Shown: positions 19,597 through 21,956 of the stretch, piece by piece
Numbering within the stretch: the first letter of the stretch is position 1
Layout: every line of letters starts with the position of its first letter
NCBI GenBank assembly: GCA_023255625.1
Contig: JAHFLF010000003.1
Coordinates: 2,105-66,104 of the forward strand
DNA from: Candidatus Harrisonbacteria bacterium
GTDB lineage: Bacteria > Patescibacteriota > Minisyncoccia > UBA6257 > 1-14-0-10-44-23
DNA: 64,000 nucleotides
Reading direction: 5' to 3'
Made by a program: the position numbers and the translations under genes
Notes under the pieces: generated by a model
Told to the model about the DNA's origin: nothing
Seen by the model: the letters and a program-made list of their open reading frames with translations, nothing else
Database searches by the model: none

Positions 19597-20117
19597 CACG
19601 ATATTCTTGCGAATACTTTTCCCCTCTCACGAGGAGCGTAGACTATATCTTGACCCACCCTAAATCGCTTTTGCGACCGGGTAAAGGGTCTCGGCATCTT
19701 ACAAATGCAGCCCTGTCTGCGAAACATATCGCAAACTTTCTGGAACTACATAAGTCCGCCCGTTATCCCGCTGTTAGCGGAACCGGAACAAGTCGTTACG
19801 GGGTCAAGCGCGAAATACGCGCAAGTTGAAAGTTTATCAAGTTTATAAAGTTATAAAGTAGAAACGGAAACCCGCATCCACTTGATGAACTTTACAAACT
19901 TTCAACTTTACAAACTTGCGTGCTTTGCACGCCGACTTCCCACGGTATTGTCTTATTACTTTTCTGGTCCTCAAGCTTGTACGCCTTTGGCGTATAAATT
20001 GTACCACGCGTTTGAGGACTAACTCTCGCTTGGTTATCAACAGACCAGACCGTCATAAGATTCCACCGTTATTAGCCGAATTTTCATCACGCATTACTGC
20101 ATGAAGTAGCAAACTTT
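19597..20117 (-). ncRNA. group I intron A (ORF-less, ~521 nt) in the 23S sarcin-ricin loop region (between U2656 and A2657, E. coli numbering, inferred)
   Basis: P7/P9.0 core AAGATATAGTCTACGC on the minus strand. Removing 19597-20117 reconstitutes CCTAGT|ACGAGAGGACCGG. It contains a copy of the AAGTT composite palindrome (19806-19933). Confidence 0.6.
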
Positions 20118-20705
20118 ACTAGGATCGACTCTCCTCCGATACCATACGCCTGCAACAGATAGAGACCAACCTGTCTCACGACGGTTTGAACCCAGCTCAC
20201 GTGCCCTTTTAATTGGCGAACAGACAAACGCTTGGGAGCTTCTTCACCCCCGCGCTAGGGCGAGCCGACATCGAGGTGCCGAGCGTTGCCGTCGATAGGA
20301 ACTCTCGAGCAACACCAGCCTGTTATCCCCGGGGTAACTTTTATCCGTTGTCTTTGTGCTTTCTATAAAGCAACATCGGGTCACTAAGTTCTGCTTTCGC
20401 ATCGGCGCGACTTGTAGGTCTTGCCGTTAAGCCAGCATGTGCCTTTACACGTTCAGCCCGATTTCCATCCGGGCCAAGCTGACCTTAATAAACTCCTCCG
20501 CTACTCTTTAGGCTTGTTGTTAGTTGCATGCATCATTTCTGTGCATCGCTTCATGTCGCCATGAAGGTCAGACTATATCTTCAGCATATCCGGATATGAT
20601 TGCTGTTTGGCGTATAGTCGTTGAGGACTCTCTTATTGAAGCTGAAAGAAGGAGTGAAATAAATAATTAATACATAATAACTACTTCACGTCCACGCGAT
20701 GCGTG

Positions 20706-20781
20706 TGGTGGGCTCTGAAGGACTTAAACCTCCGACCTCCTGGATTTCAACCAGGTGCTCTAGCAGCTGAGCTAAGAGCCC
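20706..20781 (-). ncRNA. tRNA-like structure 1 inside intron B: full cloverleaf with a Phe(GAA) anticodon arm and encoded CCA, but the D/T tertiary invariants are altered
   Basis: Minus strand: GGGCTCT TA GCTC AGCTGCTA GAGC A CCTGG TTGAAAT CCAGG AGGTC GGAGG TTTAAGT CCTTC AGAGCCC A CCA. C19 and U56 replace G19/C56. T-loop is TTTAAGT. Confidence 0.5.
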
Positions 20782-20797
20782 ACTTGTTCGCATTTTT

Positions 20798-20889
20798 TGG
20801 AGCGGGCGAGAGGATTCGAACCTCTACCCTATCGCCGCCAAAGCCCTTGCGGGCTCAAGGGGCTTGCCCTGCCGTTAGACCACGCCCGC
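20798..20889 (-). ncRNA. tRNA-like structure 2 inside intron B: class II-like (long extra arm) with canonical acceptor, D and T arms but an aberrant anticodon region
   Basis: Minus strand: GCGGGCG TG GTC TAACGGCAG GGC A AGCCCCTTGAGCCCGCAAGGGCT ... AGAGG TTCGAAT CCTCT CGCCCGC T CCA. U8, GG in the D-loop and T-loop TTCGAAT are present. No 5-bp stem plus 7-nt anticodon loop can be drawn. A GCAA-tetraloop hairpin AGCCC/GGGCT occupies the region. Confidence 0.4.
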
Positions 20890-21407
20890 TCCGTTACAAC
20901 ATTGCTTGCGATTTTCCTCCTTCTTTCAACTTCAATAAGGTTGCCTGCTGATTGTCCGCATCGATCTTGAATTTTTACCCTTTTCGACAAGAGGTATCAA
21001 GATATGCCCGGATATTCCAGCATATAGCCAAATTTTTTACCGTTAACCCCCATATGCGCAGAGGCACATATATACTTGAGGATAACGCCCCATTAAAACT
21101 GCCCACCAGGCACTGTCCCGCGACGTTTTTGCCGTCGAGGTTAGAATCTAAAATTTTACAGATGGCTGTTTCATTGTTGGATCCATGTCTCCCGAAAGAG
21201 ACACTTCAAATCCTCGCCACTACGCTACGCAGTAAAATCCTAGAGCCAATACCAAGCTACAGTAAAGCTCCCGGGGTCTTTTCGTCTTGCTGCAGGTACC
21301 CAGCGTCTTCACTGGACTCGCATTTTCACCGAGCTCTTCGTTGAGACAGTTCTCCACTCGTTACACGATTCGTGCGCTTCGGAACTTACCCGAAAAGGAA
21401 TTGCGCT

Positions 21408-21956
21408 CACTATTGTTACTATCCGCCAGCTTGCGGACGGATGAATATTTCTATTCACCTCTATGCATTACTGCACAGGTCGGACTATATCTTCATATAT
21501 GCGTTATCAGGCGCATACTGTTCGGCGTGTAGTCTCTACAGGGTCATATTGAAGCTGAAAGAAGGATGCGAAGTGTATCGCTACTCCTTCGTATCCGCGC
21601 GGAAGGCGCGAAAGAGAGGTGACGGGTCTCATGTATTTACCCGCATTGCAATAAAGACTCGTAGTCTTTAATCTTGAGGCAACCGGCTCGCCCCGAATTG
21701 CACTGCAGCCCTTGCGGGTTCTGCAGGAAGCAGCCATACCATCCGAAGGCAACAGGCTCGAGTAGTCTGGTGGACGCTGTGCGCCACTCGAATCTCTTCC
21801 GCCTACATCGGAGCTAACCCTTGCTTCTCACACCCCTCTCATTTTCCTTCTTTCAACTTCAATAGACTTCCCTCGGTATTGTCCAAGACAAAATTTCCTT
21901 TCCTATATTCTTGGATGTTCACCGATATAGCCAAATTTTACTAAGGCAAGCAATTC
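21408..21956 (-). ncRNA. group I intron C (ORF-less, ~549 nt) at 23S helix 69, site L1917 (inferred)
   Basis: P7 3'/P9.0 AAGATATAGTCCGACC plus P9 hairpins GGTGAATAGAAATATTCATCC and TCCGCAAGCTGGCGGA. Removing the intron joins ...TAACTATAATCGTTCTAAGGT|AGCGCAATTCC, which matches the E. coli sequence CUAAGGU|AGCGAAAUUCC. Confidence 0.65.

Follow-up and report, generated by a model that had tools for sequence, protein, structure and literature searches.

The minus strand of the window, i.e. the whole 64,000-nucleotide stretch of DNA that was analysed, carries a 23S rRNA gene of ~5.3 kb, which is followed downstream by a 5S rRNA gene and is interrupted by three introns, here called A, B and C in the order of transcription, plus several non-intron insertions (table 1). 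Inside intron B lie two tRNA-type genes, which an earlier reading of the sequence, hereafter the first-pass annotation, had overlooked. A promoter-like site (11/12 match plus an extended -10) is found at 25412..25385, ~700 nt upstream of the 23S gene, and the 16S gene is unlinked to the 23S gene. Intron C disrupts the Rfam alignment, so that the call of the 23S gene ends at 20042.

The uncultured host is probably of the CPR/Patescibacteria type; the unlinked 16S gene, the many introns and relatives known from metagenomes alone fit an assignment to Patescibacteria. An amidohydrolase gene neighbours the locus, and the contigs of relatives reached through this synteny break in or near the rRNA.

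Table 1. Features of the 23S rRNA locus, with positions in the window.
Feature	Positions	Strand	Basis
23S rRNA gene	19365..24680 (approximate, including the 3' end)	minus	RF02541, 1867 bits; alignment to E. coli 23S
Group I intron A, after U1931 (L1931)	21408..21956 (549 nt)	minus	RF00028, 48.1-48.9 bits, E about 1e-10
P6 extension of intron A	21547..21864	minus	inverted repeat; 20-bp stem, arms 21864..21845 and 21566..21547
Group I intron B, after U2262 (L2262)	20513..21078 (566 nt)	minus	RF00028, 54.9 bits, above gathering score
P6 extension of intron B	20632..20939	minus	inverted repeat; Rfam alignment; MFE fold
tRNA-like gene	20798..20889 (92 nt)	minus	RF00005, 41.9 bits; ARAGORN 'tRNA-Lys(ctt)'; folds
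tRNA-Phe(GAA) gene	20706..20781	minus	RF00005, 67 bits; ARAGORN Phe(GAA)
Group I intron C, between U2656 and A2657 of the sarcin-ricin loop	19597..20117 (521 nt)	minus	RF00028, 22.1 bits
AT-rich hairpin module, P6 of intron C	19808..19932	minus	repeat families D1-D4
5S rRNA gene	19034..19150	minus	RF00001, 58.1 bits

Insertion sites and ribozyme anatomy

When positions 24700..19300 (minus strand) were aligned pairwise to E. coli 23S, with site numbering calibrated on sarcin-ricin loop and P-loop landmarks, exactly three large insertions emerged, and removing each of them restores conserved 23S text with seamless flanks. The rejoined flanks read CTAAGGT/AGCGCAATTCC for A, GGGGCGTTATCCT/CCTAAAGAGTAGCGGAGGAG for B and CCTAGT/ACGAGAGGACCGG for C (the slash marks the insertion point), and the ligated exons are predicted to be CTAAGGT-AGCG, TATCCT-CCTAAAG and CCTAGT-ACGAGAGG, respectively. 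The first-pass annotation had already recognized that the flanks reconstitute conserved 23S, and its outer limits agree with the alignment, as does, by landmark numbering, its placement of the third site between U2656 and A2657. Its first site moves from L1917 to L1931, i.e. 3' of helix 69, and its second from about 2256 to a position following U2262.

As read from the sequence, all three introns have a U·G pair at the 5' splice site in P1 and a terminal G. In intron A (CUAAGGU/gaauugcuuGCCUUAG) P1 is formed by CUAAGGU and GCCUUAG, and P2 is absent; in intron B the exon segment CGUUAUCCU (21087..21079) pairs with GGGUUAACG (21049..21041) at 8 of 9 positions; in intron C (UAGU/aaaguuuGCUA) the pairing of UAGU with GCUA comprises only 4-5 bp, P2 has a GUAA loop, and ~100 nt between P7 and P3' resemble P7.1/7.2. 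Matches to the group I covariance model RF00028 (gathering score 50 bits), which the first-pass annotation had named as the check on its proposal, are graded: intron B exceeds the gathering score, intron A stays just under it and intron C (E 0.002-0.02) falls well below it, i.e. the group I core is recognized in B, very nearly so in A and weakly in C. A conserved string that had been said to occur three times does so only in part: the 16-mer AAGATATAGTCNGACC occurs twice, in introns A and B (0 expected by chance), and its 11-mer core alone is common to all three, because intron C has AAGATATAGTCTACGC.

For a homing endonuclease domain, the 7 intronic ORFs gave no Pfam match at E<=1 beyond noise, nor did they show tblastn similarity to 78 ORFs of related introns; degenerate endonuclease genes in the cargos of the introns were likewise rejected, with neither Pfam nor tblastn giving matches. 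The earlier claim of introns without a homing endonuclease is thereby sustained, whereas the accompanying statement that no ORF exceeds 70 aa fails for intron A, in which an 81-aa, TTG-initiated ORF without a domain match runs on the sense strand (21507..21752). The three introns may have lost an endonuclease gene or may never have had one.

Overall, RF00028 matches, U·G pairs, terminal Gs and exon restoration support the first-pass proposal of three presumably self-splicing group I introns without a homing endonuclease gene, one of them in the sarcin-ricin loop; splicing is what we infer from their anatomy, insertion sites and model matches. Each intron would have to be excised and its exons ligated before the H69-71 region, the P-loop-adjacent region and the sarcin-ricin loop form. 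The group I core matches and the U·G pair and terminal G at all three boundaries speak against reading the segments as expansion segments or as RNase III-processed intervening sequences that are never ligated, a scarcely credible alternative, even though several non-intron insertions occur in the same 23S gene and hairpin modules are common to its exons and introns. For example, intron C shares its AT-rich P6 module with the exons, where two paralogous copies lie at 22010..22130 and 22251..22375, and 9 compensatory pairs occur among the three copies. The sites themselves, inside the sarcin-ricin loop and beside the P-loop, also argue for excision, as a break or a 500-nt insert at either place is incompatible with known ribosome function. 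Moreover, the accessible part of a survey of CPR introns classes insertions at these sites as group I introns (PMC11270868).

For such uncultured bacteria, group I introns in 23S genes are ordinary, even at the sarcin-ricin loop. Introns of this type in CPR 23S genes were reportedly first noted by Brown et al. in 2015. In the accessible text of the survey, which covers 348 CPR 23S genes, positions 1931 and 2657 (the latter catalogued as the sarcin-ricin-loop site 23IS14) are among the sites where group I introns are frequent, and 222 of 433 group I introns are ORF-less (Tsurumaki et al. 2024, PMC11270868). Introns A and C sit at these catalogued sites (1931 and 2656/2657 here, 1931 and 2657 in the list), and because 2657 is a frequent CPR 23S site there, the sarcin-ricin-loop insertion is not unusual, contrary to the first-pass annotation; site 2262 is not named in that part of the text. 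As at our locus, a single-copy 23S gene with several introns in its 3' half is accompanied in the survey by an unlinked 16S gene (PMC11270868). The three-intron observation is one more example for a published catalogue and therefore matters little by itself.

Which of the introns are shared with related 23S loci, a question raised by the first-pass annotation, has a divided answer. Metagenome locus L054 has an intron at the same site as intron B (2262), and comparison of the two by eye suggests exon-guide covariation from U-A to C-G, whereas no homologous sarcin-ricin-loop intron was found in 12 loci covering the loop. A contig from a second sample spans intron C with identical spacing. Three relatives (L097, L098 and L099) have other intron sets, with nothing at 2262 or 2656. 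In a fourth (L005), where only the final ~450 positions of the gene are present, an intron lies at L2500 and the sarcin-ricin loop is uninterrupted.

P6 and its cargos

Across 39 related introns, P6 is the usual slot for a cargo or an endonuclease gene; its terminal loop in this intron family is normally ~30 nt long or holds a LAGLIDADG-sized ORF, and 11 related introns have a P6 of ~30 nt. In intron B, arms of 29 nt (20939..20911 and 20660..20632, 90% complementary) close a 250-nt loop that contains the tRNA-like gene followed by the tRNA-Phe(GAA) gene, and the Rfam alignment shows a 285-nt insert in the P6 hairpin. In intron A, the stem encloses a 278-nt non-coding cargo (21844..21567) without an Rfam match, and the whole intron folds with z = -7.1. 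The two introns share 20-23-nt repeats that flank both cargos. In P6 they have a conserved stem in common, TA-TTGAAGTTGAAAGAAGGA ... TCCTTCTTTCAGCTTCAA-TA (also written as TATYGAARYTGAAAGAAGGA...TCCTTCTTTCAGYTTCRATA), with an interchangeable ~270-nt cargo, and the same stem, with compensatory changes, is found at the tip of helix 63 in a 23S exon of the relative L099.

This stem may be a new kind of portable cassette through which structured RNAs are exchanged between the tips of rRNA helices and the loops of introns. Homology among the cargos themselves was considered and rejected: in local alignments both comparisons with the L099 cargo fall within shuffle range, and that of cargo A with cargo B lies marginally above shuffles (10/300), its best stretch being a short GNRA hairpin. 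No known RNA families were found in the L099 cargo or in the non-coding P6 cargos of L040, L054, L070 and L077. A scan of a genome collection with a 20-mer of the P6 arm gave one match, a chance coding match in a Bacteroidales MAG, and viral contigs gave three chance AT-rich coding matches without a partner arm. The RNase III-processed intervening sequences in helices 25 and 45 of bacterial 23S rRNA likewise have long perfect stems and variable inserts, located at the tips of helices; they lie, however, in exons and result in fragmented rRNA, whereas the P6 stems of introns A and B lie inside introns.

The tRNA-type genes of intron B

Intron B is ORF-less yet not empty, because it contains a tRNA-Phe gene and a tRNA-like gene, both located on the rRNA sense strand within the P6 insert and both with an encoded CCA, which is absent from all four other tRNAs in the window, itself 64 kb of a contig of 184 kb. 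The tRNA-Phe(GAA) forms a clean cloverleaf with a canonical anticodon loop and discriminator A (A73); its elbow is non-canonical (D-loop AGCUGCUA, T-loop UUUAAGU), with C19/U56 replacing the G19-C56 pair. The 92-nt RNA has a 7-bp acceptor stem, a canonical D-arm (GG), the T-arm GGTTCGAATCC and discriminator U, and instead of a 17-nt anticodon arm it features a well-paired rod of ~30 nt (-18.8 kcal/mol) with a GCAA tetraloop. Lacking a 7-nt anticodon loop, it cannot decode, and because of this rod in its anticodon region it is filed here as tRNA-like and not as a decoding tRNA. As to an independent promoter for the two genes, the best candidate inside the intron is a background-level 9/12 match; an ORF antisense to the pair had no match in a homology search.

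A tRNA cargo was found in none of 89 related metagenomic introns and in none of the 23S genes of the four relatives (L005, L097, L098 and L099). The D-arm/T-loop signature of the tRNA-Phe had 0 matches in 241 million metagenome records, and viral contigs contained neither this signature nor the intron core. No donor for the pair was identified, because BLAST against phages and plasmids gave generic tRNA similarity only (~70-78%). The cargo is known from one assembly, contig k141_5146887 of ERZ27297344, and the only other contig over the area, from the independent ERZ27296333, starts at ~20617, i.e. it ends beside the cargo, just 3' of the tRNA-Phe gene. These two circumstances, together with the repeats on either side of the cargos in introns A and B, would suit a chimeric join in the assembly, with the real intron B having a short P6 or some other cargo. 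Such an artefact is nevertheless very improbable, since the contig name implies a final k of 141, which greatly exceeds the length of the shared repeats, and the cargo sits exactly in the loop of a 29-bp stem with both arms from the same intron; moreover, the order of the 23S exons to either side is correct, and two precise chimeric joins would be needed.

We regard it as fairly probable that the locus consists of three group I introns of which intron B acts as a host of tRNA-type genes released from the 23S precursor. The terminal loop of P6 would be a cargo slot, in intron B with a 29-bp stem holding a 250-nt cassette. Transcribed solely within the 23S precursor, from the promoter-like site ~700 nt upstream, the tRNA-type RNAs would part from the rRNA when the intron is excised; RNase P would free their 5' ends, possibly after an RNase III cut of the long P6 stem, and 3' trimming would proceed back to the encoded CCA. 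The tRNA shapes and their rarity among relatives are observed; processing, aminoacylation and a benefit to the cell would be consequences of this scheme. Excision of intron B from 23S may be the only source of the organism's working tRNA-Phe and of a tRNA-shaped RNA with a new function. If a working tRNA-Phe comes only from this excision, its supply would therefore be tied to rRNA synthesis, and intron B could not be lost. That intron B is such a domesticated host gene, with the portable cassette as a related idea, is a tentative proposal whose odds are not favourable.

The peculiarities of the two genes could also mean that they are functionless passengers, i.e. a captured and possibly foreign pair that is decaying in the P6 loop and is tolerated there, since any sequence can be accommodated in a peripheral loop. 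C19/U56 in the tRNA-Phe, a 13-nt 'anticodon loop' or rod in the second RNA, the absence of the cargo from the 89 related introns and the relatives, and that of the tRNA-Phe signature from metagenomes all agree with decay or capture, and the encoded CCA, unlike host tRNAs, hints at a foreign origin. Yet both genes retain perfect 7-bp acceptor stems, intact T-arms and CCA, the 67-bit tRNA-Phe has discriminator A and a canonical anticodon loop, and the rod with its GNRA loop looks remodelled and not eroded, which makes passengers an unlikely explanation.

A further reading, which we consider distinctly unlikely, has the tRNA shapes serving intron B and not translation, be it as entry sites for RNase P or RNase III that dismantle the excised intron or free the cassette, as a scaffold in which GNRA tetraloop docking stabilizes P4-P6, or as a handle for a tRNA-binding protein acting as splicing cofactor, in the way that the mitochondrial tyrosyl-tRNA synthetase is a splicing cofactor of fungal group I introns. 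The 92-nt RNA, with a complete 'top half' for RNase P and the CCA enzyme and no decoding end, would suit such a role, as would its GCAA tetraloop, a typical group I tertiary contact, and the long perfect P6 stem, which from established knowledge of the enzyme should be an RNase III-type substrate. However, it is hard to see what such service would gain from a fully canonical GAA anticodon arm, and the cargo is dispensable for the ribozyme fold, because 11 related introns manage with the short P6 and intron A has an unrelated cargo on the same stem.

Related systems and significance

As the host of tRNA-type genes, intron B would resemble rrn spacers, which host tRNAs, and eukaryotic introns, which host snoRNAs, in that small stable RNAs are transcribed as part of a highly expressed host RNA, from which processing then frees them. 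The rrn spacer tRNAs, however, sit between rRNA genes, whereas the genes of intron B lie inside a ribozyme inside an rRNA, and snoRNA hosts, unlike intron B, are spliceosomal introns. In the twin-ribozyme group I intron of Didymium (DiGIR1/GIR2), a peripheral helix likewise carries a second structured RNA, there a functional one, but this cargo is a lariat-capping ribozyme for the mRNA of the intron's own endonuclease, in contrast to the tRNA-shaped RNA of intron B. The Thermotoga 23S introns described by Nesbø and Doolittle in 2003 are reportedly L1931 group I introns, i.e. bacterial and at the same nucleotide as intron A; they encode a LAGLIDADG endonuclease/maturase, and intron A has its non-coding cargo instead. 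In the accessible part of the CPR survey, cargos are LAGLIDADG or GIY-YIG ORFs or 'uncharacterized' and tRNA is not mentioned (PMC11270868), in contrast to the tRNA-type genes here.

The closest analogue of the intron B cargo is the hexacoral mitochondrial ND5-717 group I intron, which contains a tRNA gene (PMC6545197). There too, conventional host genes, a tRNA gene among them, are housed in a peripheral helix, and for this reason the intron is obligatory and acts as a host gene (PMC6545197). ND5-717 is mitochondrial, resides in a protein-coding gene, is up to ~19 kb long with many genes, holds its cargo in P8, ends in A and is removed by back-splicing, whereas intron B, a bacterial intron of an rRNA gene, holds its 250-nt cargo in P6 and has the normal terminal G.

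In the literature we found no bacterial precedent for tRNA genes within a group I intron; the cargo described here would be the first bacterial case found of tRNA genes nested in a ribozyme in an rRNA gene. If true, the endonuclease slot of a group I intron would be reusable for stable RNAs. The locus is also an annotation trap, in which an rRNA caller cut the 23S gene short at intron C and pipelines that reject tRNA calls overlapping rRNA would presumably list tRNA-Phe as missing. Finally, the order in which splicing, RNase P processing and ribosome assembly take place on a single transcript could be tested directly at this locus, in a bacterium with a reduced genome.

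Insertion sites and group I identity

Alignment of the minus strand of positions 24700..19300 to the E. coli 23S gene (L001:940-3842), with the numbering calibrated on two landmarks, i.e. the sarcin–ricin loop and the P-loop, shows exactly three large insertions (introns A, B and C, in 5' to 3' order). Their outer limits coincide with those of the first-pass annotation, and conserved 23S exon text rejoins on their removal, as had been stated there. The third site had correctly been placed at U2656/A2657 in the sarcin–ricin loop; the first, assigned to L1917 in helix 69, moves to U1931/1932 directly 3' of this helix (CUAAGGU/AGCG, 1925-1931/1932), and the second from about 2256 to 2262. 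A one-C ambiguity at the boundary of intron B is settled by the terminal bases required of group I introns, U for the 5' exon and G for the intron, and the homologous intron of the comparison locus L054 agrees (junctions TATCCT/TCAAGG...AATAGTG/CCTAAAGAG).

A rival explanation is that the three segments are unspliced expansion segments of the rRNA. All three, however, match the Rfam group I model RF00028 (gathering score 50), as the first-pass annotation had proposed to check: intron B reaches 54.9 bits, intron A 48.1-48.9 bits (E about 1e-10) and intron C, the weakest, 22.1 bits (E of 0.002 in a local and 0.02 in a 6.4-kb search). They also fold far better than shuffled sequences (z = -7.1, -7.2 and -9.2 for A, B and C). 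In each, the final exon base is a U able to pair with the internal-guide G, and the final intron base is G. P1 is formed by CUAAGGU with GCCUUAG in intron A, by CGUUAUCCU with GGGUUAACG (8/9 pairs) in intron B and, shorter, by UAGU with GCUA in intron C; as read from the sequence, position 2256 of the exon covaries with the guide base it pairs with between intron B and the L054 intron (U-A to C-G). The original observation is thus real and its group I interpretation right.

With cores 70-75% identical and repeat families D5-D8 in common, introns A and B are, by sequence similarity, paralogues; both lack P2, and nothing separates P7 from P3'. Intron C is of another type, with a P2 carrying a GUAA loop and ~100 nt between P7 and P3' that resemble P7.1/P7.2 of subgroup IA, to which we tentatively assign it. 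The 16-mer AAGATATAGTCNGACC, said to occur three times, is found twice (0 expected by chance), and intron C has only AAGATATAGTC in common with it. The absence of homing endonuclease genes is upheld: none of seven intronic ORFs (53-130 aa, both strands) gives a meaningful Pfam match, and translated ORFs of 89 related introns find no match in any of the three introns. One of the seven, a TTG-initiated ORF of 81 aa in intron A, had been overlooked in the statement that no ORF exceeds 70 aa.

The 5' half of the gene holds further, non-intron insertions, possibly intervening sequences or expansion segments; the 140-nt one, a long AT-rich inverted repeat, attracts spurious matches to plant microRNA models. 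Rfam finds no 16S gene in the 64-kb window. A candidate rrn promoter of near-consensus sigma-70 type (TTGACA, 16 nt, TATACT, with TG; 11/12 match plus extended -10) lies ~700 nt before the 5' end of the 23S gene; the region from there to the upstream methionyl-tRNA synthetase gene contains no 16S gene, which is therefore unlinked. An annotated 211-aa ORF overlapping the 5S gene is probably spurious; similar calls are a 137-aa ORF within the 23S gene and a 54-aa ORF within intron C.

Coordinates of features in and around the 23S rRNA gene (window positions)
Feature	Position	Strand	Remarks
23S rRNA, bacterial	ends ~19365	minus	RF02541, 1867 bits; Rfam match ends at 20042, homology extends to ~19365 (E. 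coli alignment)
5S rRNA	19150..19034		Rfam, same search as 23S
Intron A	21956..21408	minus	549 nt, after U1931
Intron B	21078..20513	minus	566 nt, after U2262
Intron C	20117..19597	minus	521 nt, after U2656
tRNA-like gene	20889..20798	rRNA sense	92 nt, 41.9 bits; ARAGORN label "Lys(ctt)"
tRNA-Phe(GAA)	20781..20706	rRNA sense	67 bits, clean cloverleaf
P6 stem of intron A	21547-21864		
P6 stem of intron B	20632-20939		
Cargo A	21567-21844	minus	278 nt, 55% GC
AT-rich element	19808-19932, 22010-22130, 22251-22375	minus	partial copy 24694-24728
23S insertion	24297-24394	minus	98 nt, near E. coli 270
23S insertion	23924-24187	minus	264 nt, near E. coli 400
23S insertion	23600-23739	minus	140 nt, near E. 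coli 540
Candidate rrn promoter	25385-25412	minus	
211-aa ORF	18438-19073	minus	annotated in public assembly
Ordinary tRNA genes	40685-40766, 47737-47811, 54934-55006, 61857-61941		Leu, Val, Ile, Leu

A tRNA gene and a tRNA-like gene in P6 of intron B

Missed in the first-pass annotation were two tRNA-type genes within intron B, placed by both Rfam and ARAGORN. In the Rfam alignment the P6 hairpin holds an insert of 285 nt, where two 29-nt arms (20939..20911 and 20660..20632; 90% complementary) close a 250-nt loop containing both genes; the MFE fold is a long stem enclosing two cloverleaf-like domains. In tRNA-Phe the anticodon loop reads UUGAAAU, the discriminator is A and CCA is encoded; its D-loop (AGCUGCUA) and T-loop (UUUAAGU) imply that C19/U56 replaces the usual G19-C56 elbow pair. 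The four ordinary tRNAs of the window have canonical elbows and no encoded CCA, which means that CCA addition in this organism must be enzymatic, and in both respects the intronic pair differs from the host tRNA set.

In the 92-nt gene the 7-bp acceptor stem is perfect (G1-C72, C2-G71, G3-C70), the discriminator is U, CCA is encoded, and the D-loop (GG) and T-arm (GGUUCGAAUCC) are canonical. The anticodon arm is replaced by a rod of ~30 nt with a GCAA tetraloop at its end, which makes the RNA tRNA-like and incapable of decoding. Its acceptor and discriminator bases are those known to specify bacterial tRNA-Gly identity, a lead only. Rival readings are that the two genes are a decaying passenger, or that the tRNA shapes serve the intron itself in processing or as a scaffold.

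Of 89 metagenomic introns that share the P3-P7 core, 39 allowed the P4-P6 junction to be placed. In these, P6 measures ~30 nt in 11 loci, is filled in a second class by an ORF of 140-165 aa, i.e. single-domain LAGLIDADG size, and in a few loci holds non-coding sequence (233 nt in L040 and L064, 409 nt in L054). The tRNA pair thus sits in the usual endonuclease-gene slot. The simplest reading is co-transcription with the rRNA, as intron B contains no promoter match above background and the 11/12 match precedes the 23S gene.

Hairpin modules in rRNA helix tips and P6 loops

In P6, introns A and B have identical 20-nt arms beside their cargos (stem TATTGAAGTTGAAAGAAGGA/TCCTTCTTTCAGCTTCAATA), against an identity of only 70-75% in the ribozyme cores. 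An insertion of 265 nt at the helix-63 tip in the 23S exon of a relative (L099:1284-1588) is closed by the same stem, which differs there from A and B by two compensatory pairs and by G-C in place of one G·U. TA...TA borders each of the three copies, and the cargos measure 278 (A), 264 (B) and 265 nt (L099). No sequence similarity is detectable among the cargos: in local alignments both comparisons with the L099 cargo stay within the shuffle range, and A versus B is only marginally above it. A stem with an interchangeable cargo of ~270 nt looks like a portable cassette. Cargo A has strong structure, matches no Rfam family, contains no domain-bearing ORF and resembles cargo B only in the GARCCCGCAAGGGCT hairpin.

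The gene's own helix-63 tip carries a module other than that of L099, an AT-rich three-hairpin element which also occurs in P6 of intron C and in the 23S exon near E. coli ~1870. Small GC hairpins flank its AT-rich hairpin of ~110-125 nt, in which an AAGT motif recurs with a 9-nt period; the three copies of the element, confined within the window to the rrn region, are 73-86% identical with 9 compensatory pairs. Helix tips of the rRNA thus have hairpin modules in common with the P6 loops of introns, and the tRNA pair occupies one of these.

Distribution of the introns and proposed fate of the cargo

In a survey of 348 CPR 23S genes, 82% carried insertions, including 433 group I introns (222/433 without ORF), frequently at 1917, 1931, 1952, 2593, 2604 and 2657; those at 2657 (23IS14) were called novel by comparison with other bacteria (Tsurumaki et al. 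2024, PMC11270868). Contrary to what had been supposed, the sarcin–ricin-loop site is thus not unusual; the stated reason for interest is already published for such bacteria, and introns A and C are additions to an existing catalogue. Site 2262 does not appear by name in the available text of that survey, though it is used by the L054 intron. Of the 89 related introns, L1931 holds the majority, L2604 several and L2262 one; some interrupt 16S or other genes. The suggested comparison with relatives' 23S genes yields differing intron sets even, by these sequences, among close relatives: L005, with 71% identity in the neighbouring amidohydrolase, has an ORF-less group I intron of ~330 nt after U2500 (L005:48-375) and an uninterrupted sarcin–ricin loop, L097 has introns near 1920, 2450, 2511 and 2595, L098 one at L1931 with a LAGLIDADG ORF, and L099 none. 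Such patchiness would be expected of mobile introns.

None of the 89 related introns (0/89) contains a tRNA, nor do the relatives' 23S genes carry a tRNA cargo. The D-arm/T-loop signature of tRNA-Phe was not found in the JGI metagenome collection or IMG/VR, and phage and plasmid collections gave generic tRNA similarity only. The CPR survey (PMC11270868) makes no mention of tRNA, a 2026 paper on Patescibacteria tRNA introns makes none in this sense, and full-text literature searches found no bacterial precedent for tRNA genes within a group I intron. The nearest precedent found is the mitochondrial ND5-717 intron of corallimorpharians, whose P8 insertion holds two rRNA, one tRNA and 12 protein genes (PMC6545197).

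The cargo is known from one contig (ENA ERZ27297344, k141_5146887, 183,730 bp). A second-sample contig (ERZ27296333), with the same spacing across intron C, starts at ~20617, just 3' of tRNA-Phe, and neither confirms nor contradicts it. A chimeric assembly is very improbable, as the cargo sits in the loop of a stem with both arms from the same intron, the flanking exons are in order on both sides, and the only local repeats (20-23 nt) are far below k=141.

Overall, three group I-type insertions occupy functionally critical rRNA sites, and a tRNA and a tRNA-like gene are nested in P6 of one of them. The introns would self-splice, presumably an obligatory step for a working P-loop region and sarcin–ricin loop, and the P6 cassette would depart together with the excised intron. 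RNase P could then cleave the 5' ends of both tRNA shapes, possibly once RNase III has opened the 29-bp stem, and the 3' ends would be trimmed back to the encoded CCA, yielding tRNA-Phe and a 92-nt RNA. This cassette of tRNA-Phe and tRNA-like gene in the L2262 intron, supported by its anatomy in one assembly, is the part worth following up.
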